Assembly: GCA_046297835.1 (NCBI GenBank)
Contig: JBKBHI010000001.1
Location: forward strand, 391,354-455,353
Reading direction: 5' to 3'
Source: Alphaproteobacteria bacterium
GTDB taxonomy: Bacteria > Pseudomonadota > Alphaproteobacteria > SMXQ01
DNA length: 64,000 nt
The position numbers and the translations under genes are program-made. Shown one piece after another: positions 12,915 to 53,467 of this stretch (its first letter is position 1; every line of letters begins with the position of its first letter). The notes below the pieces were generated by a model. That model was not told the origin of the DNA and did not search any database. It saw nothing but the letters and a program-made list of their open reading frames with translations.

Positions 12915-12966
12915 AATGCCTGACGTCGCAAAATCCGCCATATTGCCTTGATCACGTAAGGAGTTC

Positions 12967-30380: not shown

Positions 30381-30398
30381 GATTCTATCTCGACTTTC

Positions 30399-32264: not shown

Positions 32265-32285
32265 TGTTATCTCCTCAACATGATC

Positions 32286-33049: not shown

Positions 33050-33066
33050 TGTAACAAAGTGTAACA
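33050..33066 (-). promoter_or_regulatory. direct repeat TGTAACA-N3-TGTAACA, putative CopR box upstream of the cupredoxin/pcoAB operon
   Basis: gTGTAACAaagTGTAACAgc has the same half-sites and spacing as the box at 26090. Confidence 0.5.
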
Positions 33067-33157
33067 GCGACGATGGATAAATCGCCCAAGGTCGCTGCGG
33101 TAGATATTGCATCAAGACCCTACGGAAATCCGTAGGCGCCAAGCCACGCAAATAACC

Positions 33158-33601: not shown

Positions 33602-33611
33602 AAGATTCTCC

Positions 33612-33642
33612 TTGAAGCTCTAGTAACTGTAGCTCTTATGTT
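33612..33642 (+). promoter_or_regulatory. MerR-type promoter (TTGAAG, 19-bp spacer, TATGTT) between the divergent merR-like and ATPase genes
   Basis: The 19-bp spacer is read directly. It contains a direct AGCTCT...AGCTCT repeat rather than a perfect dyad. Confidence 0.45.
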
Positions 33643-33677
33643 GAGCTTTGCAATATTGGACTTTGGGAGAGCTCATC

Positions 33678-36125: not shown

Positions 36126-36146
36126 TGAACATCTGATTTCGACAAT

Positions 36147-36638
36147 ATGCCCCGCTCCTTGCACCTTGGATTATTTTCGGCGTTCTTCGTTGCCGCGTTT
36201 TCAGCCGATCAGGCTTCTAAGAAAATCGCTTTAGACGCGCTTGCAAATCCGCCTCGGATCGTTGAAGTCCTTTCTTTTTTCAACCTGAGGCTCGGATTCA
36301 ACAGCGGAGTGAGCTTCGGATTGTTCGCGACCGATTCGCCGTACATCCTGATCTCTCTGACGGGGGCCGTGATCGCGATTCTCGCCTGGTGGGCTTATCG
36401 CGCTCAATCCGCTATTGAGACGGTTGCATTGGGGCTCATTGTCGGCGGCGCGCTGGGCAACCTCGTCGATCGCATTCGACATGGCGCAGTTGTCGATTTT
36501 CTCGACCTGTTCTACCAGGAATGGCATTGGCCGACCTTCAATGTCGCCGACATTACGATTGTTTCCGGGACGTTGCTTTTAGTTCTGACGTCCTTGCGCC
36601 AAGGCAAAACGCCGACAAAACCCGCCTCAAAAAGCTGA
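36147..36638 (+). CDS. lspA: lipoprotein signal peptidase II
   Basis: Conserved LspA blocks (FNxGxSFG, NLVDRIRHGAVVDF, FNVADI). Confidence 0.8.
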   Translation: MPRSLHLGLFSAFFVAAFSADQASKKIALDALANPPRIVEVLSFFNLRLGFNSGVSFGLFATDSPYILISLTGAVIAILAWWAYRAQSAIETVALGLIVGGALGNLVDRIRHGAVVDFLDLFYQEWHWPTFNVADITIVSGTLLLVLTSLRQGKTPTKPASKS

Positions 36639-36657
36639 ATTTCCCCTGCGTGAACAG

Positions 36658-37170
36658 ATGACCGGAATGACTGGACGAGCGGCCCTCCTGGTCGTGTTTG
36701 CTGTTTTTACAATGCAGGCGGGCGCGCTCTCGCGCGCGGTCGCGCATGAGTTCAAAGCGGGCGAGATAACTGTCCAACACCCCTTTAGCCGCGTGACGCC
36801 GAAGGGCGTTAAAACTGGAGCGGCCTACATGACGATCGTGAACGGCGGAACATCGCCTGACCGCCTCATCGGCGCGACGACGGAGATTGCAGAACGCGCC
36901 GAAATTCATCGCACAACCACGACTGACAACGGCGTCATGAGAATGCGCCTCCAGCCCGACGGAATCGCCATACCCGCTGCCGGCGAGATCAAGCTCCAGC
37001 CCACGAGCGAGTATCATATCATGCTGGTCGGCCTCAGCGAGCCGCTGCAAGAAGGAATGAAAATTCCTCTCGTCGTGAAGTTCGAGAAAGCGGGATCCGT
37101 TGCGGTCGAACTGGCTGTCGAGGCTCTGCGAAAACGTCCCGATGCGCCGCCGAGTCACGGCGATCATTGA
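36658..37170 (+). CDS. periplasmic copper chaperone PCu(A)C (DUF461)
   Basis: Signal peptide and the H(M)x10Mx21HxM-type copper motif (HIMLVGLSEPLQEGMKIPLVVKFE). Confidence 0.75.
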   Translation: MTGMTGRAALLVVFAVFTMQAGALSRAVAHEFKAGEITVQHPFSRVTPKGVKTGAAYMTIVNGGTSPDRLIGATTEIAERAEIHRTTTTDNGVMRMRLQPDGIAIPAAGEIKLQPTSEYHIMLVGLSEPLQEGMKIPLVVKFEKAGSVAVELAVEALRKRPDAPPSHGDH

Positions 37171-37778
37171 CGATGAAAACCCTACGGCTTGTTCGTATCG
37201 TCGCGTGGATCGCTGTCGCATTGGCGCTCACGCTGCTTTTTGGCTATTGGAAATCCCTGCCGTCCAAAAAATCTGAGGATGCGGCTATCACGTCGCCGAT
37301 GCGGCTTGGAGGGTCTTTTTCGCTCGTTGACCACACCGGAGAGGCTGTCACAGATAAAGATTATCGCGGCAAGCCGCATTTGCGGTTTTTCGGTTTCACG
37401 CATTGCCCGGACGTCTGCCCTACGACATTGTCGTGGCTCGCCGACCTCGTGGAGCAGTCGGGCGGAGATGTCCCTATTCTGCTCGTCAGCGTCGATCCCG
37501 AGAGAGATACCCCAGAGGTGCTCGCGGATTACGTCTCCAGTTTTGGCCCGAACATCGTTGGACTGACGGGGACGGTCGATCAGATCGACGCTGTCGTCAA
37601 AAGTTGGGGAGCCTATTCCAAACGGGTGCCGCAAGAGGGCGGAGGATATACGATGGACCACACCGCTAGCGTCTACTTGGTCGATGGCGACGGCGCTTTC
37701 CGCGGCACTCTCGACATTCATGATGCGTCTCCGACGGCAAATCTCGCCAAACTTAAACGTCTCCTCGAATCGAATTGA
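37167..37778 (+). CDS. SCO1/SenC copper chaperone / thiol-disulfide oxidoreductase
   Basis: N-terminal membrane anchor. CxxxC motif (FTHCPDVCP) plus the conserved distal His in a thioredoxin fold. Confidence 0.8.
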   Translation: MTMKTLRLVRIVAWIAVALALTLLFGYWKSLPSKKSEDAAITSPMRLGGSFSLVDHTGEAVTDKDYRGKPHLRFFGFTHCPDVCPTTLSWLADLVEQSGGDVPILLVSVDPERDTPEVLADYVSSFGPNIVGLTGTVDQIDAVVKSWGAYSKRVPQEGGGYTMDHTASVYLVDGDGAFRGTLDIHDASPTANLAKLKRLLESN

Positions 37779-37790
37779 AGCCGGAGCATT

Positions 37791-37973
37791 ATGAGCGACA
37801 GCCAGAACGAGCGAAAATCGAGACAGAAGCTCCAGCAGCGCCTGAAGTCTCGCAACCTCGCTCTGGCCGCCGTTCTGGCTGGGTTGGTCATCTTGTTTTT
37901 CGCTGTCACTATCGTTCGCGTTCAACAAGGAAGCGAACAACGGGGCAATGCCCCTCTCATTATAAATCGTTGA
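37791..37973 (+). CDS. hypothetical small single-TM protein
   Basis: 60 aa: a basic N-terminus, then one hydrophobic helix. No homology recognised. Confidence 0.25.
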   Translation: MSDSQNERKSRQKLQQRLKSRNLALAAVLAGLVILFFAVTIVRVQQGSEQRGNAPLIINR

Positions 37974-37986
37974 GGGACTGACGGAG

Positions 37987-38418
37987 ATGGCCGAAAATAG
38001 GAATGGCGCAGTCTGGAATTTGATCTTTGCCGCTTGGCTCGTCGCCTTGGCATCCACTCTCGGCGCCCTGTTTATCGGCGAAGTCATGGGGCAAACGCCG
38101 TGCAACCTCTGTTGGTTTCAGCGCGCGTTCATGTTTCCTCTGGTCGTGATCCTCGGCATTGCCTGCTACCGGTCCGATGCCGCCGCTTGGATATACGGAC
38201 TGCCGGTCGCAGTCGCCGGCGGCTTGATCGCGGCGTTTCATAGTTTGCTATACTTCGGCGTCATCCCTAAGGAGATCGAACCCTGCGGAGCCGGCCCGTC
38301 CTGTTCGAGTCCGGATATGCTCATGCTCGGCCAGCTTCCGATCCCGGTTCTTTCGCTCATAGGTTTCATGGCCATTATCGGCCTTTTGCTGGTCGTCCGT
38401 CGGAGGCTCGAATCGTGA
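37987..38418 (+). CDS. disulfide bond formation protein B (BdbC-type DsbB)
   Basis: Four-TM protein with PCNLCWFQR in the first periplasmic loop and a second Cys pair (CGAGPSC). Confidence 0.7.
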   Translation: MAENRNGAVWNLIFAAWLVALASTLGALFIGEVMGQTPCNLCWFQRAFMFPLVVILGIACYRSDAAAWIYGLPVAVAGGLIAAFHSLLYFGVIPKEIEPCGAGPSCSSPDMLMLGQLPIPVLSLIGFMAIIGLLLVVRRRLES

Positions 38419-39077
38419 TGTCGAAGCGCGTTATCGTTCTGCTGACGGCGCTCGTCGCCGTGGGAATCTTTTTCGGCGCGGGCGTCGCCTACGACCGCCA
38501 GATGGCCAAGCTGAAAGAAGAAGCCGCCACCGCTTCCGCCAACGCGCTTATCCGCGACCATTCGCCTGTCATCGGAATCCCCGACGCGCCCGTCACGATC
38601 GTCGAGTTTTTCGACCCTGCCTGCGAATCCTGCAGAGCCTTCTATCCGATCGTGAAGCAAATTCTCGCGCGCCATCCGGATGATGTCCGCCTCGTCTTAC
38701 GTTACGCCCCGCTTCACGAGGGGTCAGACCAGGTCGTGCGGCTGCTCGAAACCGCGCGTATTCAGGGCATCTTCGAGCCTGTCCTCGAATCCGTGCTGCA
38801 AGCCCAGCCGCGTTGGGCGGCGCATGGCAATCCAGATATCGATATTGCCTGGCAGGCAGCTCGGATCGCGGGTCTCGATATAGAGCGCGCCAAACAGGAT
38901 CTAAATCTCCCGGCGATTGAAGCCGTCCTGAAACAGGATGTCGCGGACTTAACGACCCTTAAGATCAGGGGAACGCCGACGTTCTTCGTTAACGGCCAGC
39001 CCTTGCAATCCTTCGGACCGCGCCAGCTCTATGAAGCTGTCCTCAATGCGTTGCAGAATATTCGAGCTGCCGAGTAG
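38415..39077 (+). CDS. DsbA-family thiol:disulfide oxidoreductase (BdbD-like)
   Basis: Membrane anchor or signal peptide. Thioredoxin fold with a CESC active site and a cis-Pro region (GTPTFFVNG). Confidence 0.75.
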   Translation: MMSKRVIVLLTALVAVGIFFGAGVAYDRQMAKLKEEAATASANALIRDHSPVIGIPDAPVTIVEFFDPACESCRAFYPIVKQILARHPDDVRLVLRYAPLHEGSDQVVRLLETARIQGIFEPVLESVLQAQPRWAAHGNPDIDIAWQAARIAGLDIERAKQDLNLPAIEAVLKQDVADLTTLKIRGTPTFFVNGQPLQSFGPRQLYEAVLNALQNIRAAE

Positions 39078-39101
39078 CAGCCGTTATTACTGAGGTCCGA
39101 C

Positions 39102-39914
39102 GTGATTGATCTGCACTCTGCGCTGCTCGCTGGTCTGCTCGGAGCTGTCGAAGGGCTTACCGAATTTATTCCGGTCTCATCCACCGGACATCTGATTCTC
39201 TTGGTCGATTTACTTGGATTTCAGGGGCCTCCCGGCAAGGTCTTTGAAGTTGCCATCCAGCTTGGCGCAATCTTCGCCATTTGCTGGGTCTATCGCCGAA
39301 AGCTTTGGACTGTTGCAGTCAACTTCCCCAATGACAGAAATGCGCGCCGCTTCATATTTTCTATTTTAACTGGCTTTTTGCCGGCGGCATTGATCGGGGC
39401 GCTCTTGCACGATTTCATAAAGAGCGTTCTCTTTTCGCCCTATGTCGTGTCTGTCAGCCTCGTTTTGGGCGGGTTTGCCATGCTGGCGATTGAGCGATGG
39501 GCGCCGTCCCCGCGCATATCAGGAGTTGACCATGTGGACCTTAACACCGCTCTCAAGATTGGCTTCTGTCAGGCATTAGCCATGATCCCGGGAGTGTCCC
39601 GCTCCGGCGCGACAATCATGGGAGCGATTATGCTCCGAGTAGACCGCCAGACCGCGACGGAGTTCTCGTTTTTTCTCGCGATACCGACAATGGTCGGAGC
39701 CACGACTCTAGATCTCTATAAAAACTGGGAATCCATCGATCCTGCCGGGGGACTGATGATCGCGATCGGTTTTAGTGCGGCTTTCGGTGCCGGCCTTCTT
39801 GTCGTCAGGCGTTTAATCGCCTTTGTCGGAAAACACGGGTTCGCTCCGTTCGCCTGGTACCGTATCGCCTTAGGATTGGGGATAATCTTTATATATATGC
39901 CGGCCTCCGTATGA
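39102..39914 (+). CDS. uppP: undecaprenyl-diphosphatase (BacA/UppP)
   Basis: Conserved BacA blocks (EFIPVSSTGHL, PGVSRSGATI, AIPTM). Confidence 0.85.
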   Translation: MIDLHSALLAGLLGAVEGLTEFIPVSSTGHLILLVDLLGFQGPPGKVFEVAIQLGAIFAICWVYRRKLWTVAVNFPNDRNARRFIFSILTGFLPAALIGALLHDFIKSVLFSPYVVSVSLVLGGFAMLAIERWAPSPRISGVDHVDLNTALKIGFCQALAMIPGVSRSGATIMGAIMLRVDRQTATEFSFFLAIPTMVGATTLDLYKNWESIDPAGGLMIAIGFSAAFGAGLLVVRRLIAFVGKHGFAPFAWYRIALGLGIIFIYMPASV

Positions 39915-40265: not shown

Positions 40266-40751
40266 ATGCAACGCGATATTTCAAAAATAGCCTTAGATAT
40301 TGGCTCTCTGAACGGCTGCTCCCTTGCCCAATTACAGGCGCAATGGACGACCCTTGCGAGTAAGCCCTTAAAGGGGGCTCGGCGTGACTTATTGCAGCGC
40401 GCCATTGCTTACCTTTTGCAAGACCAGGAAGGCGGCGGCCTCTCAGCAAAAACGCGCCAGCGCTTAGGTCAGTTGGCTAAAACTTATGCCAAGGATCGTA
40501 GCGCCCAGGCCCAGATGGCGCCCGATCTCAAACCGGGCTGCCGGCTCCTCCGCGAATGGCAAGGCGTCATGCACGAGGTCGTCGTGCTGGAACAGGGCTT
40601 TCAGCACGATGACCGCACCTACCGCAGCCTCTCGGAAATCGCGCGCACGATCACCGGCACGCGCTGGTCGGGCCCACTGTTCTTTGGTTTGAAGAAGCCT
40701 GCTGGCACGGCGCAGCCATCGCACGCCGGTAAGATCAAGGCAGAGCGATGA
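40266..40751 (+). CDS. DUF2924-family protein (recombinase-associated)
   Basis: 161 aa directly upstream of a large serine recombinase, overlapping it by 4 bp. This pairing is typical. AAGGAGG ribosome-binding site. Confidence 0.55.
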   Translation: MQRDISKIALDIGSLNGCSLAQLQAQWTTLASKPLKGARRDLLQRAIAYLLQDQEGGGLSAKTRQRLGQLAKTYAKDRSAQAQMAPDLKPGCRLLREWQGVMHEVVVLEQGFQHDDRTYRSLSEIARTITGTRWSGPLFFGLKKPAGTAQPSHAGKIKAER

Positions 40752-42451
40752 GCGCGCCTAAAGTTCTGCGCTGCGCCATCTACACGCGCAAATCGTCGGA
40801 GGAGGGGCTTGAGCAAGAATTCAACTCTCTCGACGCCCAGCGCGAGGCCTGTGAGGCTTATGTCCTGAGCCAGCGTCATGAAGGCTGGCAGGCGCTCGAG
40901 ACGTTGTACGATGACGGCGGCTATTCCGGCGGCAATATGGAGCGTCCCGGGCTGGTGCAACTGCTTGCCGATGTCCGGGCGCGCAAAGTCGATGTCATCG
41001 TTGTCTATAAGGTCGACCGGCTCACGCGCGCCTTGTCGGACTTCGCCAAGATCGTCGAGACGCTGGACGGGCATGGCGTTTCCTTCGTCTCGGTGACGCA
41101 ACAATTCAACACCACCAGCTCGATGGGGCGGTTGACGCTCAACGTGCTGCTGTCCTTTGCCCAATTCGAGCGCGAGGTCACAGGCGAGCGCATTCGCGAT
41201 AAAATTGCCGCTTCGCGCAAGAAAGGCATGTGGATGGGTGGTCCGGTGCCGCTCGGCTACGACCTGGTCGATCATAAGCTGGTGATCAACGAGCCCGAGG
41301 CGACGACGGTGCGGCAGATCTTCGAACGCTACGCTGAACTGGGCTGTGTCCGCAAACTCAAGGCCGCACTCGACGAGGCCCAGATCGTGAGCAAGCGACG
41401 CGTAACCGCGGGCGGCCGGGCGTCGGGTGGCCAAGCCTTCGGTCGCGGCCAGCTCTATCATCTGCTGCGCAACCGGCTCTATCTCGGCGAGGCGGTGCAT
41501 AAGGGAACATCCTACCCAGGGCAGCATGACGCGATCATCGCGCCACGGCTATTCGAGGAAGTGCAGGCGACGCTGGCCGCCAATCGCGTCGCGCGTCGTG
41601 ATCGCCAGGGTGCCGCGTCGCCGAGCCTGCTCGCTGGCTTGCTCTTCGACACGGACGGCCAGCGCTTCACGCCGAGCCACACCCAGCGCCATGGCCGGCG
41701 CTATCGTTACTATGCCGCAGCTCAGCCGGCGGACGAGGGCGCCTCACAGGCCGGCCGGCTGCAGCGGTTGCCGGCGGCGCAGATCGAGGCCATCGTCGAG
41801 GGCGAGCTGAGCCGCTTGCTGGCGACGCCGTCCGAGCTTCTGAGTTATCTGCCCGGCGCGCCCGCGGTCCTGACCCACGCGGTTCTCAGCGGTGGGGCCG
41901 CTGCGGCGATACGCTGGTCGGCGGCCGCGGCACCCGCGCGGGGGACACTGCTGCGCGCTGTGCTACGCCGGGTGACGGTAAGCGCCACGCAGCTGCGCCT
42001 GACCGTCGACTTGCCGGCGCTGTGGCGGATACTGCTGCCTCTAGAGCAAGCCGAGGCCGCCAGCGCCTTGGCGCCGGCGACGCTCGAGATCGAACGGCCG
42101 GTGACTCTCAAGCGCAGCGGTCGTGAGACCCGGCTCTGGGTCCCTGGCGCCAACGCGCCACGGCAAGTGGCCAAGCCCAATCCGGCGTTGATCAAGCTGG
42201 TGGTCCGCGCTCATGACTGGTGGGGGCAGTTTCGGGCGGGGCGCTCGACGCAGGCGATTGCCAACGCGCTCGGCCTCAACCGCAGCTATATCGCGGCAGT
42301 GATGCCGCTCGCCTTCTTGGCGCCAGATCTGGTTGAGGACATCCTGGCCGGCTGTCAACCGCCGGGCTTACAGACCAAAGACCTGATGGACCTGCCATTA
42401 GAATGGGCGGCGCAGCGCGCGCTCCTCGCGGCGCGCGCTGAAGGTATCTGA
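40748..42451 (+). CDS. large serine recombinase
   Basis: Resolvase catalytic domain (AIYTRKSSEEG...DAQRE...VIVVYKVDRLTR). Recombinase domain. Long C-terminal coiled-coil/Zn region. 567 aa. Confidence 0.85.
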   Translation: MSAPKVLRCAIYTRKSSEEGLEQEFNSLDAQREACEAYVLSQRHEGWQALETLYDDGGYSGGNMERPGLVQLLADVRARKVDVIVVYKVDRLTRALSDFAKIVETLDGHGVSFVSVTQQFNTTSSMGRLTLNVLLSFAQFEREVTGERIRDKIAASRKKGMWMGGPVPLGYDLVDHKLVINEPEATTVRQIFERYAELGCVRKLKAALDEAQIVSKRRVTAGGRASGGQAFGRGQLYHLLRNRLYLGEAVHKGTSYPGQHDAIIAPRLFEEVQATLAANRVARRDRQGAASPSLLAGLLFDTDGQRFTPSHTQRHGRRYRYYAAAQPADEGASQAGRLQRLPAAQIEAIVEGELSRLLATPSELLSYLPGAPAVLTHAVLSGGAAAAIRWSAAAAPARGTLLRAVLRRVTVSATQLRLTVDLPALWRILLPLEQAEAASALAPATLEIERPVTLKRSGRETRLWVPGANAPRQVAKPNPALIKLVVRAHDWWGQFRAGRSTQAIANALGLNRSYIAAVMPLAFLAPDLVEDILAGCQPPGLQTKDLMDLPLEWAAQRALLAARAEGI

Positions 42452-42472: not shown

Positions 42473-43096
42473 CTATTTCTTATCGGCCGGCTTATCAAGG
42501 CTCCAGGTTAGGGTGCCGCGCACGATGGCCGCATATTTTTCCGGACTGAGCGGCAACTCACCACTGTAAAGATAGCCCTCGGTCTCCTTGCCCGTACCAT
42601 CGACAAGACGTGTGGCCGGAGTCTTATAATTTCCGGCCAGAGTAAAGCGTCTATTTTCGACACTGAACCCGTCGTTATCTTCAAATTGCAGTTGGAGGAA
42701 ATTGCCGTCCTTCTCCCAATATTTTTTCCAGTCGGGATCGATCAGATCCGCTTGGCTGATGGTCTTGACCTGACCCTCGATTTGAAATTCGAACAGCAAC
42801 GCATTCTCGCGGTATTTCACTGTGAGGGTAGGTTCTAAGCCGCGGATCGGCCGGACAGTAAGCACCTTGGCGCGCGATAGTTTGGCCAGTTCGCTTTCAT
42901 CGTAGCGTTTGAGCTCGAGCAGGCGGCCGCCTTCACGCACCAGGGTTTGGCCAGTTGCCTTGTTGAGCAGATAGACATCGCCTTTGACGTCTTTGATCTC
43001 ATATCGATCGCCACGGCCGGTGAGATCTTCGAGGCAGCCGGTCAGCAGTGCGGCGCAGGCGGCGAATGCCGCGAGTTTCCAATAGAGCATAGTCAT
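42473..43096 (-). CDS. hypothetical lipoprotein
   Basis: Lipobox LLTGC after the signal peptide MTMLYWKLAAFAACAA. The alternative ATG at 43090 has better ribosome-binding-site spacing. Confidence 0.45.
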   Translation of the reverse strand: MTMLYWKLAAFAACAALLTGCLEDLTGRGDRYEIKDVKGDVYLLNKATGQTLVREGGRLLELKRYDESELAKLSRAKVLTVRPIRGLEPTLTVKYRENALLFEFQIEGQVKTISQADLIDPDWKKYWEKDGNFLQLQFEDNDGFSVENRRFTLAGNYKTPATRLVDGTGKETEGYLYSGELPLSPEKYAAIVRGTLTWSLDKPADKK

Positions 43097-43439
43097 CTCC
43101 CCGGTTGACTGGGGCAGCGGCCCCATGGTCCTAGTATCGCGAGGGGAGGCGAGGCAGTCGAGCGCAAGGGGAGTGGGGAGCGATGCCAGATTGGCTTTCC
43201 GTAACGTCCGTTCTGCGGTCGTCGGTGCGCGCGGCGCCGGTGCTTCGCAAATCCAAAGAGTTAGATGTCGGAAGGGGTTAGCTGGTAGGCATGGCGACTG
43301 ACATGTCTCGGCATCCTTGCGCGTGGCCCTTCCAAACCCTCTGCCATTGCAGATGACAGAGCGCAGCGTTATGCGCGATTTGCGCATCAATTGCCCCGTG
43401 CAGCCCGTATCCGCTTGGTTAAGATGGGAGGGACCATTC

Positions 43440-43455
43440 GGGGGGGGGGGGGGGG
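43440..43455. repeat. 16-nt homopolymeric G tract (poly-C on the minus strand)
   Basis: Read directly at the junction between the metal module and the AT-rich module, about 100 bp 3' of the HTH-ImmA gene stop. Confidence 0.9.
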
Positions 43456-43558
43456 ATGGCACATGTGGCGGCACACAAAAAACCAACCACTCAACACCCC
43501 TTGCGCTGTGTGCAAACAGGCTTGCGTTTGGGTTATTATGCTCGCTTATGTCTGAGAG

Positions 43559-44734
43559 TTAGTTTTGCTGCATCTCAAATAAGGTACGCAAAGTACCGCG
43601 CTCAATTAGGCGTGAGAATTTTTTGTAATTTTGATGATCTCGTTGCCAGCGGCCTGCGACTATCGCGATGTTTACTCGGGCCTGAATCGATAATGAAGTT
43701 ACGTCGTCCTGACTCATGTCGTGAGCCCAATGAAATTGAGAAAGGATGTCGCTCGGAATAAGCGACTCTTGTGCCAAGAGATCGGCTTCACGCTCATAGG
43801 CATCATCACTATTGATTTCAATATCATCAATAAATGCTGAGCCAGACTCTCTCAGATAATCGTAATGCAGCGAGATGTGCGCCAGCTCGTGCAGAAGTGT
43901 AAACCAGAAGTTATCGAGGCGATCGTGTCGCAATGTGAGTCCTACGACCGGCCGACTTGCCGCGTCGACCATTGCAGCGCCATCGAGAAATGTTCCGGGA
44001 AGTGGCGGCAGTATCACGACACAAATCCCAAGTTTAGCTAGATGAGTAATCACGCGAGTAGGCCCATCAGTTCTGGCGCTAATCCTTGCTACAGACCGTA
44101 ATTCGGATGATCCGAATTTAGACTGTTCAAAAGTATTCTTAAGGCGCTGGTTCTCGCTTTTTCTGACTACTGCAGCTTGCCAAAGCAAAAGAGCATGCTG
44201 GTCTGTTTTTGACGCAGCACGTTGCGTTCTGGTTTTGCGAAGTAACGCGGGAGAAAGGTTTGTTTGAGCAACCGGGCTTAAAAAAGCATCTAGCTCTTTA
44301 GGCCCAACTTTAAAGCCCATAGAACTTAAGCGATTAAGTGCGGGAGTAGACTCGCTTTCAAAACTCTTATCAGCTCTGCTCGAGATAAGAGATTCGTAAG
44401 GTATGCCGAGGCCCTGATGTAGTGAGCGGATCATATCAATTGATAGTTGTCGCTTACCTGAAAGCACCTCGGACACGCGTGCGCGTGAACCTATAAACGG
44501 CTCTAACTGCTTCGGTGAAAGGCCGAGAGCATCCATGCGAAATTTTATCGCTGCGATAGGGGATGGGGATTCAATGTGAAAATATTTTTTTTCATATTGC
44601 TCGATGAGAGTCGCAAGGACCTCGATCTCATCATCGTAATTAAGATTGTTGCTGGCTTGCAGCAGATCCTTGATGCGACTCTTCGCGTCTTTCAGATCAA
44701 TTTCGGTGCGAATGGGTTTGATCATCGGATTCAT
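43559..44734 (-). CDS. HigA-like HTH antitoxin fused to an ImmA/IrrE-family metallopeptidase domain
   Basis: XRE HTH (LGLSPKQLEPFIGSRARVSEVLSGKRQLSIDMIRSL). HEXXH motif (LLHELAHISLH). Start overlaps the higB stop (ATGA). Confidence 0.75.
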   Translation of the reverse strand: MNPMIKPIRTEIDLKDAKSRIKDLLQASNNLNYDDEIEVLATLIEQYEKKYFHIESPSPIAAIKFRMDALGLSPKQLEPFIGSRARVSEVLSGKRQLSIDMIRSLHQGLGIPYESLISSRADKSFESESTPALNRLSSMGFKVGPKELDAFLSPVAQTNLSPALLRKTRTQRAASKTDQHALLLWQAAVVRKSENQRLKNTFEQSKFGSSELRSVARISARTDGPTRVITHLAKLGICVVILPPLPGTFLDGAAMVDAASRPVVGLTLRHDRLDNFWFTLLHELAHISLHYDYLRESGSAFIDDIEINSDDAYEREADLLAQESLIPSDILSQFHWAHDMSQDDVTSLSIQARVNIAIVAGRWQRDHQNYKKFSRLIERGTLRTLFEMQQN

Positions 44735-45021
44735 TCCTCAGCAACTAATGAGACCGTGAGGTCTGCTACTCGAATTTCGGTCAACAGCACTATCCCTCGG
44801 CGGAAATCCATGAGGGTTTCGACGTCGATGGCCGGGTTTGGAAACGAGAACACCACGATCGGTGGGGAGCGTACGTCGGCGTATTTGAAGTCCCTAAGAA
44901 GGGCATGCGTTGATTCCCAGGTGCGGCAACGCATCTCTGCCGCCCACGCCCGCAGCATTTCTCCAGTCCTTGGGTGACTTCGAATGAAGCCATGTAGCTC
45001 CATTTCACCTAAGAAATTCAT
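44731..45021 (-). CDS. higB: HigB-family (RelE-fold) toxin
   Basis: 96 aa located upstream of the HTH antitoxin (toxin-first order). The pattern ...HPRTGEMLRAW...FKYADV... resembles the HigB toxin family. Confidence 0.6.
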   Translation of the reverse strand: MNFLGEMELHGFIRSHPRTGEMLRAWAAEMRCRTWESTHALLRDFKYADVRSPPIVVFSFPNPAIDVETLMDFRRGIVLLTEIRVADLTVSLVAEE

Positions 45022-45035
45022 CCGCTTATCCTAAT

Positions 45036-45052
45036 GCTCCCATGTCGGGAGC
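45036..45052. promoter_or_regulatory. operator-like perfect palindrome GCTCCC-ATGTC-GGGAGC (copy 1)
   Basis: Read directly. Lies 14 nt upstream of the higB start codon, just before its AGGA ribosome-binding site. Confidence 0.6.
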
Positions 45053-45085
45053 TATTTTATAGACGAGTGATCCACGCTTGTATAT

Positions 45086-45102
45086 GCTCCCAATACGGGA
45101 GC
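45086..45102. promoter_or_regulatory. operator-like perfect palindrome GCTCCC-AATAC-GGGAGC (copy 2)
   Basis: Read directly. Lies inside the spacer of a putative plus-strand promoter (TTGTAT...TTTAAT) that would read into the downstream 3-gene operon. Confidence 0.6.
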
Positions 45103-45125
45103 ACTTTAATCCAGTGAGGTGGTTC

Positions 45126-45590
45126 GTGACGCGTTTCACCGTTTTTGGAAAGAGCCTGGATGCAAACGAGCAGCAGGCTTTAAGGAAATTCGCCGAGCAA
45201 GCAGCGGGCAAAGGGGATGAGGTTAGTTTTGCCGCGTCCATTGGCGAGCCCGATCCCTCTGTCGATAGCGAAGTCGTTCTGGTTTTGGGAACGGCAAGTA
45301 CGTGTGCTAGCGCCGATCTCGCCAATGATTTGCAGCTGGCTGCAAATGGTGCCCGGCGCATCATCTGGGTTTGGCCGGAGGGCGTAGGCGAATGCGAGCT
45401 GCCTTCAGTCGTCAGGACTTACGCCTATTCGATCATCGTTTGGAATGTGGGGAAGTTAAAGTCGGTCGCAGCCGACGATGATGCGAGGTGCTTTGAAGCA
45501 TCGACGGGGGAGGCCCTGCCTAAAGTCGAAACTGAACGAAATCTCTGTGCCGATGTTGAGGCCGAAAACCCCAAGGCTAAAACAAAGTGA
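45126..45590 (+). CDS. hypothetical protein, possible Rossmann-like (SLOG/TIR-like?) nucleotide-binding fold
   Basis: GTG start with a GAGGTGG ribosome-binding site; the annotated TTG at 45078 or ATG at 45084 would lie inside the operator. VVLVLGTAS...ADLANDLQLAANGARRIIWVWPEG is reminiscent of SLOG/LOG-type folds. Low certainty. Confidence 0.4.
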   Translation: MTRFTVFGKSLDANEQQALRKFAEQAAGKGDEVSFAASIGEPDPSVDSEVVLVLGTASTCASADLANDLQLAANGARRIIWVWPEGVGECELPSVVRTYAYSIIVWNVGKLKSVAADDDARCFEASTGEALPKVETERNLCADVEAENPKAKTK

Positions 45591-46219
45591 ATTTATTCTC
45601 TTACGTCGTAGAGCACGATCTTGGGTTCGCTCCGAATCCATTTCACGGATTTTGCACGCTTGCTTGTTGCAAGCCGGAGATCCGTAAAAAAGCGAAAGAG
45701 GGTGACTACATAATTGGCACCGGTGCAACAAGGCCGGGGCTTCTCGGGCACATCACCTATTGGATGCGTGTGGATGAGATTCTGACCTTCGATGAATATT
45801 GGAGTGACCGCCGCTTCCGTTACAAGAAGCCCTACATGGAAGGCACTACCATGTTGCGCTACGGCGACAACATTTATCACCGAAGCGGCGGTAAAGATTT
45901 TCAGCAAGAGGATTCATTCCACAGCCATGAGGATGGCAGCCTTTCTCGTGGTGATTTAAAGCGAGATACCCAAAAGACGGAGAGGGTTCTTATAGGGCGT
46001 GACTTTTCGTATTGGGGGCGTAACGGAATACTGTTGCCGGAACACCTGCAGTGCCTTGTGAAAAAAGGACCTGGGCATAAGTGTCGATTCACTGAAGAGC
46101 AGATAGCTATGTTTCATGCTTGGTTGAGCAATCAGCGTGAACGTGGCTTTAAGGGGGAGCCGGCTCATTGGCAATTTATTGGACAGCTCAAGCGCCGGCC
46201 TTCCCGGGCTCGGAGGTGA
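45587..46219 (+). CDS. Nmad2-like (nucleotide-modification-associated domain 2) protein
   Basis: The N-terminus MNLFSYVVEHDLGFAPNPFHGFCTLACCKPEIRK matches, from memory, the conserved start of the Nmad2 family. The start overlaps the upstream stop (ATGA). Confidence 0.5.
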   Translation: MNLFSYVVEHDLGFAPNPFHGFCTLACCKPEIRKKAKEGDYIIGTGATRPGLLGHITYWMRVDEILTFDEYWSDRRFRYKKPYMEGTTMLRYGDNIYHRSGGKDFQQEDSFHSHEDGSLSRGDLKRDTQKTERVLIGRDFSYWGRNGILLPEHLQCLVKKGPGHKCRFTEEQIAMFHAWLSNQRERGFKGEPAHWQFIGQLKRRPSRARR

Positions 46220-46222
46220 TAG

Positions 46223-47881
46223 ATGAGGCCTATCGACTACGACCAATTCGTTCGCAAAACCGATCAATATTCTTTGAAGGCCCCCAAGGAGCGTCATGCA
46301 ATTGCTTTGTATGGGCTTGTGGGCGAGATCGGCTCTTTAATCTCGGCCATAAAAAAGAAAATATTGGCCGAGGGTGGTGAGGCTGATTGGGATCAACCAA
46401 ATAAAGAGATCAAAGAAGAGATAGGGGATGTGCTTTGGTACTGCTACTCGCTTTCTCAAATCGTCAATGCGACATATTTTGATATTCTAACGAACGATAT
46501 TTCAGTCCTAAGACGCGAGATCGAGGGAGGCAACGAACGGGCTGAGAAAATTAGTGCGGCGCTCGCGGCGCTTGATCCAAAAAGTAAGAACGAATTTCTT
46601 TCAGCCGCGGCGCTCTTTCCTATTTCAAATGACTTTTCATTTGATGCTTACCAAGCGCTTGCATTCAAAACTGCAAGAACGGACGGAATAATCCTTCTCG
46701 AGGTTTGCTTGGCTGTCTTGCCGCAATTAGGTGCGGAGCTTTTGCGCTCGACACTTCCCGAAGTGGAGTTGACCCTTAATAAAAATATTGCCGACCGTGC
46801 GCCCAACGTTGTTTTGGGTGAGGTGGCTTGGCATCTATCTGCAATCTCAAGCCTCTATAATTTATCGCTAAATGACGTTGTCGATTTTAATTGTCAGAAA
46901 GTAAGTTTCAGATCGGAGAGGGGGAATCCTGCCTCTCTTCATGATGAGGGACGAAAGGAGCAAGAGCAGTTTCCTCGAAAATTTAGCATCACGTTTGTCG
47001 GTATTGAGAAGGGCCTATCAAGGATGTACTTCGAAGGCCATCGACTGGGAAATGACCTAACAGATAATGCGAAAGAGGATGATGGTTATCGTTTTCATGA
47101 CGTGCTTCACCTGTCGCTCATTGGGCATCTAGGCTGGTCGCCAGTTTTTAGAGGTTTTATGAAGAAGAGGCGTCCCGACGTTGATGAGGTCGAGGATGGT
47201 GGCCGGGCTAAAGTGGTTGAGGAATTGGTTATCAAGGCCATTCACTCTGAAGGAGTGAGTCAGGCGAGGGAATCAGGCAGATGCTCTGTTGGCACTCCGA
47301 TGCGTTTGTTTCCTGAGAAAAGCACCATTCCCTTCAGGCTTTTGAAAACCATAGATTTATGGGTTGAAGATCTCGAGGTCCGCCAGAACAGATTCTGGGA
47401 ATGGGAGGATGCAATTCATGAAGGTTGCGAGATTTTCTTTAAGCTGTGTGAGCATGGCCAAGGCACTGTGCACGTAGATTTAAAAAATCGCAGTCTGACT
47501 TTTGAGTCTTTGGTAACGCCTGGCGTTCAGGGGTTAACTGTTGGGCTTGGCATGGGAGTAGGTGATGCCAGCGCAGGAGGCATACTTACTGAGGTGGATA
47601 AGACTTTCGCAGAAGGGCTGTCTGGTCTCGCTCAGGTGGTAGCAGCAAAGCGAGCGCTATTCGAAGCACTGGGATTGTCGAACCCGCCGGTCTCAATGTG
47701 GTTGCAGGTTGATATTCGCGTGGTCGACGGAAATAAAATATCTGTGAGTGCCAGGGGCGACGTGCAGGAGCGCATATGGAGCATGCAAGTCGTCGACTAC
47801 AAAGCTGCTTTCGTCAATATGACTGATAACGTGTTGTGCACTATCGCTGCGATTGCAGATGTTGAAGATCTAAGAAAATGA
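46223..47881 (+). CDS. fusion protein: N-terminal MazG-like all-alpha NTP pyrophosphohydrolase domain plus about 440-aa uncharacterised region
   Basis: HAIALYGLVGEIGSL...EIKEEIGDVLWYCYSL fits the MazG/HisE EExxE/D signature. The remainder has no recognisable motif. Begins 3 bp after the previous stop. Confidence 0.55.
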   Translation: MRPIDYDQFVRKTDQYSLKAPKERHAIALYGLVGEIGSLISAIKKKILAEGGEADWDQPNKEIKEEIGDVLWYCYSLSQIVNATYFDILTNDISVLRREIEGGNERAEKISAALAALDPKSKNEFLSAAALFPISNDFSFDAYQALAFKTARTDGIILLEVCLAVLPQLGAELLRSTLPEVELTLNKNIADRAPNVVLGEVAWHLSAISSLYNLSLNDVVDFNCQKVSFRSERGNPASLHDEGRKEQEQFPRKFSITFVGIEKGLSRMYFEGHRLGNDLTDNAKEDDGYRFHDVLHLSLIGHLGWSPVFRGFMKKRRPDVDEVEDGGRAKVVEELVIKAIHSEGVSQARESGRCSVGTPMRLFPEKSTIPFRLLKTIDLWVEDLEVRQNRFWEWEDAIHEGCEIFFKLCEHGQGTVHVDLKNRSLTFESLVTPGVQGLTVGLGMGVGDASAGGILTEVDKTFAEGLSGLAQVVAAKRALFEALGLSNPPVSMWLQVDIRVVDGNKISVSARGDVQERIWSMQVVDYKAAFVNMTDNVLCTIAAIADVEDLRK

Positions 47882-48964
47882 ATCGGCAATCCGTCGATTG
47901 ATTTTCCATTTCGGTGGATACCATGGAGCAAGCAAAGAGCCAGCACTCGTATATTTCTGTTTAATTCGAGTGCGGCCGGCTATCCCTCCATATTCTGGAA
48001 AAGCGACGCGTGCATACTTAGAGATTTCGCAAAAAATATTCTGGCAGTCGATCAGCTTGAGGGCGCGTCCCCATAGCGATTTGAAATTAATTTCTAGATT
48101 AGAAAAATGATACTCTTGATTGTCCCGCATGTAGCGAATTACGTCGGCGGGATCGAGCTTTGCGTCGCTTTGAAAGCATTTTGAGATGCCGTCAAGAGCT
48201 CCGGGGCCGGCCATTACAAAGTCATCCTCGCTGAAATTTGTGAGGGTGCTGTAATTTAAATCAGTCGCGAATTGGTAAGCTAAAAATGGCCCAATCGAAG
48301 GTGCCGATAGGAGCAGTTTAAAAGCATCTGACATGCTTCGGCACTCGGACAGGCGAATTGAGAAACCATCTTTGATTAGCTGCTCAAGCATGCGCAGGTG
48401 GTTTTGATGCTTTAGCGGGTGGCCAAAAACATTCCCTGCGGATGGCATGATGTAAGCGGCGGAATATATCCGTTCACCCTTGGCCATATGCCGCGACAAA
48501 ACTTTATCGAAAAGATCGTAGTTAAAAGTTTCCCAAGTGAGCTTTCCGAATTCCGCTTCTAGAAGCTTCCAAGTTTCGATTTTGTTAAACAACTTGAAGA
48601 GGAGAATTCGAAAAAATAGATCGTTTCTCGAGTCCGGTAAATCGTCTCTGTAAATGACATCTCGAATAAGAAACTGGCTTACGCGATCGGATGCCCGATA
48701 CGTATTCGTAAACTTAAAGCTTTTTAGAATGGGGTCGTTGGTTAGTGCGGTGTTTGTCCGGTCTAAGCGACGGAAGAAAATATTCTGACGTTCTGCAGCA
48801 AACCGCCAATACGCATAAAACACGGGAGTAGTAAGAACTTTTTGTCCCGCAATCGTTATGGCTTCAGATGCGGGGCTGCTCACCTTGTTGCTGAAATCGA
48901 CATCGAGCTGAAGTGAATCAGCACTCGTTGATTTTTGCGAGGCATTGGTAGATTTGTATTTCAT
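47870..48964 (-). CDS. hypothetical 364-aa protein (candidate DNA-base-modification enzyme?)
   Basis: Convergent with the MazG-fusion gene and overlapping it by 12 bp. No confident family assignment. The idea of an aGPT-pyrophosphorylase / hypermodification-type protein is suggested only by neighbourhood. Confidence 0.45.
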   Translation of the reverse strand: MKYKSTNASQKSTSADSLQLDVDFSNKVSSPASEAITIAGQKVLTTPVFYAYWRFAAERQNIFFRRLDRTNTALTNDPILKSFKFTNTYRASDRVSQFLIRDVIYRDDLPDSRNDLFFRILLFKLFNKIETWKLLEAEFGKLTWETFNYDLFDKVLSRHMAKGERIYSAAYIMPSAGNVFGHPLKHQNHLRMLEQLIKDGFSIRLSECRSMSDAFKLLLSAPSIGPFLAYQFATDLNYSTLTNFSEDDFVMAGPGALDGISKCFQSDAKLDPADVIRYMRDNQEYHFSNLEINFKSLWGRALKLIDCQNIFCEISKYARVAFPEYGGIAGRTRIKQKYTSAGSLLAPWYPPKWKINRRIADSFS

Positions 48965-49075: not shown

Positions 49076-49590
49076 GTGACGCGCTCGTTCGGTCGGGCTG
49101 TGACTATGCTCGACGAAATGCGGGAGGCCGTTAGCTTCTATGCGACGCGCGCAGGGGAGAAGCTACGTCGCGCAAATCAGGCGGCCGGCTATCTCAGCAT
49201 GTTCATGCACACGAATCGGTTCAACGGCGATCCTAGCCGCAGCGCTTCGGCCGTCGTTCGCTTCCCTGAGCCGACCAACGACACCGGCGAGCTAGTGGCG
49301 GGCGCCCTACGCGTTGTTGAGTCGATTTGGCGCGACGGCTTCCGATCTCAAAAGCGGGCGTGATTACCACGGACCTTGTGCCGGCCGGCGAAGGGCAAGC
49401 TTCGCTGTTCATGGAGAAGCGCCGCGATCTGCGACTCATGATCGCTATAGATAAGCTCATTGCCAAGATGGGGCGAGGGACAGTCATTACCGCCGTAACC
49501 GGCATTCGGCGCGGGTGGTTCTTAAAGGCCGCGCATCATTCGCCCCCGTTCATACGGGCGGGCGCTCGTCGCGTCGAGACGAAAAGCGCG
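49076..49590 (+). pseudogene. umuC: 5'-truncated, frameshifted remnant of Y-family polymerase gene umuC
   Basis: Two frames carry the UmuC C-terminal ('little finger') region: ...MLDEMREAVSFYATRAGEKLR...PTNDTGELV... and ...AGVITTDLVPAGEGQASLFMEKRRDLRLMIAIDKLIAKMGRGTV... The catalytic N-terminal roughly two-thirds is absent. Frames switch near 49340. Confidence 0.6.
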
Positions 49591-49593
49591 GGA

Positions 49594-50901
49594 CTAAGCG
49601 AGCAGAGCTTCCTCGTCGCGCATATCGGTGAACTTACGGCCGGTCTCAGCGTGTACGGCATCCAGGCCCATCGCAATCAGCCTTTCGATGATGACGTCGC
49701 AATAGGCAGGGTCGAGCTCAATGCCGTAGCCGGCACGTCCGGTCTTTTCCGCGGCGACCAACGTCGTTCCGCTGCCGCAGAAAGGGTCGAGCACGATGCC
49801 GCCGCGGTTCGAGCAATCCAAGATAGCGTCAGCGACCAGAGAGACCGGCTTCACAGTCGGGTGCGAAGCGAGGTCCTTCATCCTGTCCTTGCCGAAGCTG
49901 TTGGCGCCCGCATAGGTCCAGACATTCGTCCGGTTGCGCCCGTGCTTGCCGAGCTCTACGTTATTGATGTGGGCGGCCGTGCCGTTCTTGAAGACGAACA
50001 CGCATTCGTGCTGCGAACGGTAGAGGGATCCCATCCCGCCGTTCGTCTTCACCCAGACGCACATGTTCTTCACTTCGCTATAAGCGCTTCCGGCGATCAC
50101 CATCTCGCCAAGGTGCCGCCAGTCGATGCAAATGTAGTGGATCGAACCATCCGTGCTGTGCTCAACCAGCAAGTTAAAGACGGTAGACAAGAAGCTCGTG
50201 AACTCAGGCGATGTCATTTCCCCGGACGCCATCGCAAACTCTCGGTGCTGAGTTTGGCCCAAGCCGGAAACGTGCCCCTGGATCGGGACGTTGTAAGGAG
50301 GGTCAGTGAAGACCAGGTCCGCCTTCGCGCCGGCCAGAAGCCGCTCGTAGCTTTCCGGCTTGGTGGCATCGCCGCAAAACAGCTTGTGCGGGCCGATGAG
50401 CCAAAGGTCACCCGGATTCGTGATCGCCGAGCTATCGAGCTTAACCGCGGGAATCTGCTCTCCGAGATTGTTCGAGGCATTCTGCTCGTTGATCAGAACA
50501 TCAATGTCGGCAGCATCGAAGCCCGTGACGGTCAAGTCGAGATCGGGGGCGATCTCTTCGAGTTCGATGAACTCCAAGGCCAACAGCTCACGGTCCCAAC
50601 CCGCTTGCTCAGCAAGGCGGTTATCCGCGATGACGTAAGCCCGGATTTCGGCCTCCGAGAGATCTTCGCGTCTGAGGATGGGGATCAGCGGCATGTTCAA
50701 GAGCTTGGCTGCTTCGACACGGCCGTGGCCGGCTATGATGACGTTCGTGCCGTCGACTAGGACGGGCACAGTGAAGCCGAAGCGCTTGATGCTATCGGCA
50801 ATCTGCTGAATCTGCTTCTTCGAGTGTGTTCGCGGGTTGCGCTTGCGGGGATGCAGATCTCCCGGGGAGCAATAGGAAATGCTCAGCAGCGACATTGTCA
50901 C
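49594..50901 (-). CDS. ParB-like nuclease domain fused to an N6/N4 DNA methyltransferase
   Basis: N-terminal ParB/Srx-like domain (RKRNPRTHS...IIAGHGRVEAA). Methyltransferase domain with DPPY (FTDPPYN) and SAM-binding FCGSGTT. Confidence 0.8.
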   Translation of the reverse strand: MTMSLLSISYCSPGDLHPRKRNPRTHSKKQIQQIADSIKRFGFTVPVLVDGTNVIIAGHGRVEAAKLLNMPLIPILRREDLSEAEIRAYVIADNRLAEQAGWDRELLALEFIELEEIAPDLDLTVTGFDAADIDVLINEQNASNNLGEQIPAVKLDSSAITNPGDLWLIGPHKLFCGDATKPESYERLLAGAKADLVFTDPPYNVPIQGHVSGLGQTQHREFAMASGEMTSPEFTSFLSTVFNLLVEHSTDGSIHYICIDWRHLGEMVIAGSAYSEVKNMCVWVKTNGGMGSLYRSQHECVFVFKNGTAAHINNVELGKHGRNRTNVWTYAGANSFGKDRMKDLASHPTVKPVSLVADAILDCSNRGGIVLDPFCGSGTTLVAAEKTGRAGYGIELDPAYCDVIIERLIAMGLDAVHAETGRKFTDMRDEEALLA

Positions 50902-52908: not shown

Positions 52909-53393
52909 CTTCTTCCTCGTCTATGGTTGAGTTGAAGAAGACGTTTTGCTTGTTTATGGAGGGCGAAGCCTTCCGAACAAACTATCGATTTAAAATGAGG
53001 ACTAGGCTGGAAGAGGAAGGCTTGGTTTTCCGCGCGACGACCATTTCAGCGCGAGGATTGCTCTTGATCCGCGCCTGATATGCACGTGATACTCACGTGT
53101 TATGGTTTTGCATCAAACCCTATATAACCTATTGAAATGGCGACAATATCGGCGCTGTAAGATGAAGTGATCGCCCTAAAATGCTTCGCACCAGGAAATG
53201 GCGGTTCAATCTCGAATTTAAAGATGTCGAGTGCGGGAATGCTCAGCAGAGAATCCAACCCCGCAAGGCGCTAAATATGCCTCTGAACCTCTGGGATTAA
53301 ACCTCCGGAGAAGGTCGATACCCCGCTAAGCGTCGGAATTGTCGGCTCGTTTCGCGAGCCATCCGGAGAGATAAGTTTTTGAAAGAAGAGATT

Positions 53394-53467
53394 GGCTGGG
53401 GGACTAGGATTCGAACCTAGACTAGCGGAGTCAGAGTCCGCGGTCCTACCGTTAGACGATCCCCCAG
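53394..53467 (-). tRNA. tRNA-Gln (anticodon CUG)
   Basis: Manual fold of the reverse complement gives acceptor TGGGGGA/TCCCCCA, a D-arm, an anticodon stem GCGGA/TCCGC with loop CTCTGAC (anticodon CTG), a T-arm CTAGG-TTCGAAT-CCTAG, discriminator G and an encoded CCA. Length 74 nt. Confidence 0.85.

Follow-up and report, generated by a model that had tools for sequence, protein, structure and literature searches.

Introduction

Gene pairs that encode a HigB-like protein next to a fusion of an Xre-type helix-turn-helix (HTH) domain with a metallopeptidase have been recognized since 2009, when Makarova et al. predicted that combinations of RelE with COG2856-Xre fusions form three-component or regulatory systems (PMC2701414). 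The sole tested member of this family is PD-lambda-2 of Escherichia coli ECOR42 (Vassallo et al. 2022), a validated three-gene defense system in which the Xre-peptidase protein B is toxic alone, the HigB-like protein A neutralizes it and rescues the cells, and gene C (PF14350, P4 Beta_protein) is required for the abortive-infection defense against lambda-vir (PMC9519451). Here we analyze a related pair, denoted genes A and B, located on the minus strand of a 64-kb stretch of alphaproteobacterial DNA (hereafter the window; all coordinates are positions within it). In the order of the HigB-like gene followed by the gene for an Xre HTH with an M78-family peptidase, this pair is the same as PD-lambda-2; it differs in lacking a third gene C and in being arranged instead head-to-head with a four-gene cargo that resembles another anti-phage system, DS-4.

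Two further groups of described systems are relevant to this locus. The HTH protein CapH and the peptidase CapP repress and induce CBASS operons, fused CapH-CapP proteins are on record, and a vapC-like gene together with a CapH-CapP fusion has been noted upstream of DISARM (Lau et al. 2022). DS-4 (‘NTTI’), reported with DefensePredictor (Science 2026), is a five-gene E. coli system with validated anti-phage activity that consists of thymidylate-synthase-like, deoxynucleoside monophosphate (dNMP) kinase, HMUDK_hel, TIR and Nmad2 genes and protects E. coli without any A-B pair; the same work predicted MazG, MazG-C and NMAD systems, which are unvalidated.

The best reading of the comparative evidence assembled below is that A and B constitute a PD-lambda-2-family module that descends from a HigB/HigA pair of the YgjN/YgjM type and in which a CapH/CapP-like peptidase-gated repressor is combined with a non-catalytic HigB partner. 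With moderate confidence, we consider this module to be most likely the on/off switch of the adjoining nucleotide-modifying anti-phage operon rather than a classic toxin-antitoxin system.

Results

A and B form a PD-lambda-2-type gene pair

In the list of open reading frames (ORFs) of the window, A is located directly upstream of B:

Gene A: 44731..45021, minus strand, a 96-amino acid (aa) HigB-fold protein with degenerate active-site positions, matching PD-Lambda-2_A
Gene B: 43559..44725, minus strand, 388 aa (391 aa from an upstream ATG at 44734), matching PD-Lambda-2_B

An earlier sequence-only reading of this DNA had described a 96-aa ORF preceding, and overlapping by 4 bp, a 391-aa ORF. 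Both ORFs are present on the minus strand as described, and the overlap holds if B is read from its first ATG (43559..44734), in which case the sequence ATGA is common to A and B. In the identical database protein P0001, which comes from the NCBI annotation of an alphaproteobacterial freshwater metagenome-assembled genome, as well as in nearly all homologues, the protein starts at Met4 (‘M(T)IKPIRT’), and a GAGGA Shine-Dalgarno sequence is located 9 nt ahead of the Met4 ATG and directly abuts the more upstream one. Because both the starts of the homologues and the spacing of the Shine-Dalgarno sequence favor the Met4 codon, B is more likely to be 388 aa long (43559..44725) and to follow A after a 5-nt gap. 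Assignment of the two ORFs with hidden Markov models, the check that the sequence-only reading had proposed, places them in one family: A matches four PADLOC PD-Lambda-2_A models (best E=1.3e-10), and B matches PD-Lambda-2_B over residues 4-389 of 391 (E=9.9e-115). The HTH and the HEXXH peptidase of the ImmA/IrrE type noticed in B are likewise borne out by Pfam, with Peptidase_M78 at aa 262-339 (E=3.8e-9) and HTH_3 at aa 64-114 (E=1.6e-4).

Gene A encodes a HigB fold with lost catalytic positions

When A alone is compared with the Pfam HigB_toxin family, the match is below threshold (E=0.043); in this respect A differs from PD-lambda-2A, a 99.8% match to PF09907, and is far more degenerate. 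The profile of the A clade aligns with canonical HigB with an HHalign probability of 97.6% (E=4e-12, columns 1-84), and the family profile matches the E. coli HigB structures 5IFG, 5YCL and 6KML (E=2e-10). The AlphaFold (AF2) model of A, with a predicted local distance difference test score (pLDDT) of 88.5, superimposes on E. coli HigB 5IFG_A with a template modeling (TM) score of 0.80 and a root-mean-square deviation of 1.8 A, and a Foldseek search with this model retrieves 5IFG_A, 6KML and 5YCL at TM 0.73-0.80, with RelE ranking next. The RelE/HigB fold predicted for A in the sequence-only reading is confirmed by the model.

Canonical PF09907 HigBs have 64 positions with a conservation of 85% or more, and A deviates from them at 48. 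None of the basic, His or Tyr residues that are candidates for catalysis is preserved. The substitutions R55I, N59S, K61P, G62N, N63P, Y65I, R66D, R76G, H89T, Y92L and D93V cover the strand with GNxYR and the THxEYD motif near the C-terminus, where A has FSFPNPAID and VADLTVSLV, respectively, and the C-terminus of A is unconserved. A word-indexed homology search with A alone returned A itself as the sole match; the relatives required profile and exhaustive HMMER searches, and an exhaustive search of 1.84 billion representatives detected only 56 of them, with at most 48% identity. Neither GNxYR nor THxEYD is present in register in any of these 56 proteins (a single chance match falls within an N-terminal extension), compared with both motifs in 112 of 120 canonical HigBs, and the relatives of A keep a conserved core of their own, AW..E..HR.W...IETLIDFRxGxVLLT. 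Because the motifs are lost in A and across its whole clade, A is almost certainly a conserved but non-catalytic derivative of HigB.

These observations bear on the conventional interpretation, under which the locus would be a type II HigBA system, with A acting as a ribosome-dependent mRNA interferase toxin and B as a labile antitoxin in which the HTH is supplemented by a peptidase domain. Compared with E. coli K-12 HigBA (YgjN/YgjM; 5IFG, 6KML), both folds, the toxin-first gene order and a palindromic TCCC-N5-GGGA-type operator just upstream are the same, and distant A-B loci (Chloroflexota and others) that keep the full HigB motifs may indeed work in this way. The pair in the window differs from the K-12 system in that A is devoid of the catalytic-type residues, B has a linker and a peptidase in addition to the antitoxin part, and a second operator-like site and a divergent cargo operon are present. 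Catalysis by characterized HigB relies on such residues, the critical ones in the biochemically dissected P. vulgaris HigB being His, Arg and a C-terminal Asp-Tyr-His (PMC5027501), whereas A has lost R55, N59, K61, N63, Y65, R66, R76, H89, Y92 and D93; furthermore, in PD-lambda-2 the roles of the two proteins are reversed (PMC9519451). We therefore regard a classic HigBA system as very improbable here, and the roles of HigB toxin and antitoxin assigned to A and B in the sequence-only reading find no support: as in PD-lambda-2, A is probably the neutralizing partner and not the toxin.

Gene B combines a HigA-like HTH, a conserved linker and an intact peptidase

Three segments of B stand out in the alignments of its homologues:

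Xre-type HTH of B: 44393..44545, minus strand, aa 64-114, Pfam HTH_3, containing the invariant segment GSRARVSEVLSGKRQLS
Basic linker of B: 44204..44260, minus strand, aa 159-177, SPALL-RKTRTQRAASKTDQ, conserved, modeled with low confidence
HExxH zinc-binding/catalytic motif of B: 43877..43891, minus strand, HELAH, aa 282-286 (H282-E283-L-A-H286)

In the HTH, residues R84, A85, R86, E89, G93 and R95 are invariant across the B homologues, and the profile of 27 homologues matches E. coli HigA with its HTH region (5IFG_B, E=5e-6; B residues 51-109). In the peptidase, H282, E283, H286 and E314 are invariant in 27-42 homologues (two alignments); the spacing from HExxH to E314 resembles that of IrrE residues 82/83/86/113, and E314 is the likely third ligand of the M78 site. 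A Foldseek search with the model of a natural A-B fusion homologue retrieved, in order, Thauera CapP 7T5T (E=2.7e-4), E. coli HigA (6KMQ_B/6JQ4) and PprI/IrrE (8SLN/3DTI), with CapP 7T5T being the best structural match of the peptidase half. Since the Pfam, profile and fold matches agree with the invariant HExxH and E314, B is a protein in which a conserved linker joins a HigA-like N-terminal region with the Xre HTH to an intact M78 peptidase.

In the linker, T168, T170, R172 and S175, followed by D178, are invariant, and the corresponding residues 258-276 of the modeled fusion homologue have pLDDT below 50. The segment SPALL/RKTRTQRAASKTDQ resembles the cleavage sites of DdrO (IEL/RGKRPRD) and CapH (F82/R83), and by analogy to DdrO L106/R107 and CapH F82/R83 we hypothesize that the linker may be a self-cleavage or pseudo-substrate site, with a candidate cut around L165/R166.

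Two metagenomic proteins, P0028 and P0029 (489 aa, 83% identical to each other; P0028 is found on 6 contigs), are natural fusions of A and B in a single polypeptide, which argues for a physical A-B complex. A block alignment of the natural fusion was discarded because MAFFT had aligned the short HigBs with the B portion.

Two phased palindromes between A and the divergent cargo

The ATG of A (45021) and the GTG of the first cargo gene (45126) are separated by a 104-bp intergenic region (45022-45125) that contains two operator-like palindromes:

Proximal operator-like palindrome GCTCCCatgtcGGGAGC: 45036..45052, not strand-specific, 15 nt upstream of the ATG of A
Distal operator-like palindrome GCTCCCaatacGGGAGC: 45086..45102, not strand-specific, 24 nt upstream of the cargo GTG and 50 bp from the proximal one

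The pattern TCCC-N5-GGGA has two exact matches in the 64 kb, both within this region. Since the whole intergenic region is 104 bp long, occupancy of both candidate operators would, by geometry, have to overlap both promoters. The proximal palindrome had been listed as terminator-like in a sigma-70 consensus scan, an assignment that we rejected in view of the divergent flanking genes and the conservation of the phased pair across loci. Sites were counted, with one mismatch allowed, in the 310 bp upstream of A in related loci, against a background of about 0.1 sites per 310 bp:

DS-4-type loci: two sites in 12/12, spacing 49-53 bp
Other alphaproteobacterial loci with degenerate A: two sites in 19/22, spacing 59-61 bp in 18 and 72 bp in one
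Loci with full-length B and canonical A (n=26): no site in 12, one in 13, two in 1, spacing 26 bp in the two-site locus
Acidobacterial HigBA loci: one site in 16/18

The proximal palindrome is kept in all 12 cassette loci and family-wide, and the second site, placed in helical phase beside the cargo start, is specific to cargo-linked modules.

The adjoining cargo resembles DS-4

The sequence-only reading had pointed to a candidate effector operon beside the pair, and Pfam and PADLOC do identify DS-4-like genes divergent from A:

Cargo gene 1: 45126..45590, plus strand, 154-aa TIR-like protein, GTG start with a GAGG Shine-Dalgarno sequence, PADLOC ThsB E=3e-10, gene call in locus L001
Cargo gene 2: 45587..46219, plus strand, Nmad2, Pfam PF18753 E=1.8e-66
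Cargo gene 3: 46223..47881, plus strand, MazG pyrophosphohydrolase fused to MazG_C, PF18722 E=2.4e-53 and PF03819 E=6e-8
HMUDK_hel gene: 47870..48964, minus strand and convergent, similar to 5-hydroxymethyldeoxyuridine kinase, Pfam PF18723 E=5e-105, conserved in the block

BLASTP comparison with DS-4 gives 48% identity for Nmad2 (E=2e-46), 26% over 333 aa for HMUDK (E=3e-26) and 26% for TIR (E=1.6e-4). The two systems have HMUDK_hel, a small TIR protein and Nmad2 in common, with the TIR and Nmad2 genes adjacent and in the same order. They differ in that the window has MazG-MazG_C in place of the thymidylate-synthase-like and dNMP-kinase genes, that HMUDK is convergent in the window, and that the A-B module is absent from DS-4; tblastn found no match to the thymidylate-synthase-like and dNMP/adenylate-kinase genes of DS-4 anywhere in the window. 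Judging from these matches, the cargo (45126-48964) represents a variant form of DS-4.

The type loci of PD-lambda-2 and DS-4 come from the same strain, E. coli ECOR42 (assembly QOYB, contigs QOYB01000002 and QOYB01000018), which is probably a coincidence. Distant TIR-Nmad2 pairs are common in metagenomes (L109-L169), accompanied by HMUDK and by MazG_C-like or thymidylate synthase (TS)-like partners. A literature search for ‘Nmad2’ yielded irrelevant papers only.

The module is strictly linked to the cargo, and sister modules adjoin a different cargo

In a genomic scan with one genome per species, 12 loci from about 11 species had B with at least 57% identity, and all six genes (A, B, TIR-like, Nmad2, MazG-MazG_C and HMUDK_hel) are present in each of the 12 and in none of the loci with B at 51% identity or below; outside the window, this block is found with B homologues of 58-66% identity and with differing flanks. 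In L004, it is flanked by a tyrosine integrase and FHA/redoxin genes, and in Afipia and Bradyrhizobium by a Gabija-like pair of OLD-TOPRIM and UvrD genes and a serine recombinase. The reverse test, performed on 80 metagenomic Nmad2 loci, detected A-B in 15/15 loci that had Nmad2 of at least 61% identity and available upstream sequence, and in 0/57 of the more distant TIR-Nmad2(-HMUDK) cassettes, with or without MazG_C or TS. Together, the head-to-head linkage of cargo and A-B holds in 27/27 loci (12 genomic and 15 metagenomic), despite 35-45% protein divergence and changing flanks. Because the close Nmad2 loci carry A-B and the distant ones do not, the pair is, on this distribution, an accessory module acquired by one lineage of the TIR-Nmad2 cassette and strictly kept.

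The same module is found with a different cargo. In sister alphaproteobacterial clades, B is 41-51% identical, A is equally degenerate, and other genes are arranged head-to-head with the pair. These genes encode Multi_ubiq (E=1.6e-33) and Prok-JAB/ThiF E1 proteins; a Pfam and PADLOC survey of 95 upstream ORFs detected ThiF in 12 of them, and PADLOC identified BilD (E down to 6.6e-168) and E1-E2 proteins, matches by which this cargo is recognized as the validated Bil ubiquitin-like defense system. Bil cargo is found in at least 15 of the 22 sister loci (13 by tblastn, plus L020 and L021 by PADLOC BilD), and the seven other loci with degenerate A (L022, L026, L030, L034, L039, L043 and L044) lack a cargo assignment. 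The Bil-linked loci with palindromes 59-61 bp apart are L020, L021, L023-L028, L032, L036-L042 and L045 (excluding L026 and L039). Loci with canonical HigB, which come from Chloroflexota, Thermodesulfobacteriota, Acidobacteria (short HigA only) and four alphaproteobacteria, carry neither DS-4-type nor Bil cargo and have housekeeping-like neighbors. A combined literature search for BilD, CapP and HigB retrieved no paper tying the A-B module to Bil or DS-4.

A second interpretation is that A-B is an autonomous toxin-antitoxin or abortive-infection system, a PD-lambda-2 without C, in which B is the toxin and A the antitoxin, the pair co-travels with the cargo in a small defense islet, and the palindromes are autoregulatory only. 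The toxicity of B and its rescue by A in PD-lambda-2 (PMC9519451) agree with this view, as do the autoregulation of HigA-type modules through promoter palindromes, one of the two sites being ancestral, the general clustering of defense genes, with a Gabija-like pair on the other side of B in the Afipia loci, and the activity of DS-4 in E. coli without A-B. However, gene C, which PD-lambda-2 needs, is missing here and in all 82 related loci: no PADLOC or Pfam match to PD-lambda-2 C/PF14350 was found in the seven neighboring ORFs, and neighbor clustering in the 82 loci detected no conserved gene downstream of B. Mere co-travelling also fits poorly with the strict linkage in 27/27 loci, with a phase-spaced second operator that is present beside the cargo start only when cargo is present, and with the docking of the same module to the unrelated Bil operon in the same geometry. 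We consider an autonomous system to be a possible explanation of secondary standing.

In L005-L009 and L015 (Afipia massiliensis DSM 17498, NZ_JACHIJ010000005.1 184966-206117, and relatives; ~9632-13329 in locus coordinates), the Gabija-like OLD-family TOPRIM ATPase and UvrD helicase genes are right downstream of B, with a trypsin-like protease gene further past this pair, and the six-gene block there is part of a small defense island.

Genomic surroundings of the block

The block resides in an element of about 13 kb with the following features:

DUF2924 and serine recombinase genes: 40266-42451
ParB-N6/N4 methylase gene: 49594-50901
DUF5681 gene
tRNA-Gln: 53393-53466, adjoining the element

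The GC content of the block is 0.45-0.55, compared with 0.60-0.70 for the host. A search for an att-type direct repeat of tRNA-Gln was negative, which leaves the borders of the island approximate. Toxin-antitoxin modules commonly stabilize islands, and A-B could accordingly be viewed as an addiction or stabilization module of this serine-recombinase island (40.3-53.4 kb) that plays no part in defense regulation. Such a role is compatible with the position of the block inside a mobile element with DUF2924 and serine recombinase, ParB-methylase and DUF5681 genes beside tRNA-Gln, and with the similar recombinases that flank the block in the Afipia loci. Nevertheless, A-B tracks the cargo and not the recombinase, L004 having a tyrosine integrase and many Bradyrhizobium loci having no serine recombinase within 10 kb; the second operator and the Bil-linked clade would also be left unexplained, which makes this role unlikely.

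Several other features of the surroundings were recorded. Downstream of B, across a 461-bp spacer, is a lipoprotein-like ORF (42480-43097, minus strand, 205 aa, …LLTGC) that has no Pfam or PADLOC family and is not conserved beside B elsewhere. The gene-free spacer (43098-43558) contains a run of 15 G at 43433-43447 (C15 on the coding strand of the neighbors), which may reflect either phase variation by strand slippage or an artefact of the assembly; an Rfam scan detected no RNA family in this spacer, the tRNA being its sole match. A fragment of IMS_C, the C-terminal domain of Y-family polymerases (49106-49363), is located in the same element beside the fusion of ParB_N with an N6/N4 DNA methyltransferase (49594-50901), a pairing typical of mobile-element orphan methylases. 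Beside the element, a copper/metal-resistance cluster (26108-39914) encodes a sensor histidine kinase, CopB, the multicopper oxidase CopA, a P-type ATPase, SCO1/SenC and a DsbA-like protein, followed by BacA; CopA has Met/His-rich repeats (30896-31058), and the P-type ATPase has duplicated HMA domains, with a 196-nt repeat at 33699-34122.

Discussion

Given the homologies, the loss of catalytic residues, the linkage, the modular cargo, and the number and spacing of the operator sites that we observed, the following scheme can be proposed for the preferred interpretation of A-B as an immune-operon switch. Dimers of B would bind the two TCCC-N5-GGGA sites through the HigA-like Xre HTH and thereby repress both operons. 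A, which has no RNase residues, would bind the HigA-like N-terminal region of B in the way HigB sits on HigA and keep B in a non-toxic, repressing state; we infer this contact from the HigB:HigA homology, the natural fusions P0028 and P0029, and the rescue of B by A in PD-lambda-2. An infection or damage signal would activate the HExxH peptidase of B, and the activated protein would then sever the linker of a repressor, much as CapP does with CapH and IrrE with DdrO; the basic linker of B itself, near L165/R166, may be the target. Cleavage would free the operators and induce the DS-4-like cargo operon, so that the effector would be the cargo and not A. The proposal of the sequence-only reading that the fusion is a peptidase-gated sensor of the adjoining operon is thus favored by the comparative evidence, with regulation and cleavage themselves being projected from related systems.

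The systems that come closest in logic are CapH/CapP, ImmR/ImmA and DdrO/IrrE, in which, as in the window, an M78 HExxH peptidase and an Xre HTH repressor are encoded upstream of an immune or mobile-element operon. In contrast to the CapH/CapP type, the HTH and the peptidase are fused in B, the HTH half resembles HigA and includes an N-terminal region for HigB binding, and there is an obligatory third player, the non-catalytic HigB-fold protein A.

Several points weigh against this interpretation. The C-terminal GAF domain, the single-stranded DNA groove and the cysteine switch through which CapP and IrrE are activated are absent from B, only ~105 residues of which follow HExxH (the Foldseek alignment spans ~180 of 278 CapP residues) and the single Cys of which is not conserved among homologues. 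In the AlphaFold model of the fusion, the A part has pLDDT 30-55 and gives no usable A:B interface. A sigma-70 consensus scan of 43300-45300 detected no promoter. A single proximal site represents ancestral HigA-type autoregulation, and the sites by themselves would prove nothing beyond autoregulation. The cargo associations may go back to no more than two or three evolutionary events, all within the Alphaproteobacteria, and with so few possible events the correlation of degenerate A, two operators and cargo is phylogenetically non-independent. Finally, the binding of DNA, the cleavage and the induction proposed here are drawn from comparison with other systems.

A more speculative variant, to which we assign a low probability, makes A the sensor: A may have retained the capacity of RelE-family proteins for docking at the ribosomal A site or to mRNA and would in this way report phage-altered translation, and its departure from B would unleash the self-cleaving peptidase and switch on the head-to-head operon, be it DS-4-like, Bil or C. 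This variant would also explain the ‘rescue’ of B by A in PD-lambda-2 and, if true, would make A-B a portable switch that senses translation and controls the transcription of immune operons.

For the interpretation of A-B as a switch of the neighboring operon, the module family and the type of switch are known, and what is new is the docking of a dead-HigB module to a DS-4-like defense operon. The known regulators of immune operons include CapW/BrxR, CapK/CapS and CapH/CapP, to which A-B, if the proposal is true, would add a third architecture. PD-lambda-2 itself is mechanistically puzzling in that its ‘antitoxin-like’ protein is toxic, and the locus described here offers a concrete and testable explanation. 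We suggest that the pair of a HigB-like protein and an Xre-peptidase be re-read as a portable control module, whose effector would be a variable third part: the P4-beta-like C in E. coli, the DS-4-like operon in the window and the Bil operons in the sister clades. A toxin-antitoxin pair would then have been exapted into a regulator through the loss of toxin catalysis and the gain of a second operator, and Afipia massiliensis DSM 17498 together with several strains of Bradyrhizobium, among them Bradyrhizobium sp. LMG 9283, would be cultured carriers in which the regulation of DS-4/Nmad2/MazG_C systems could be studied.

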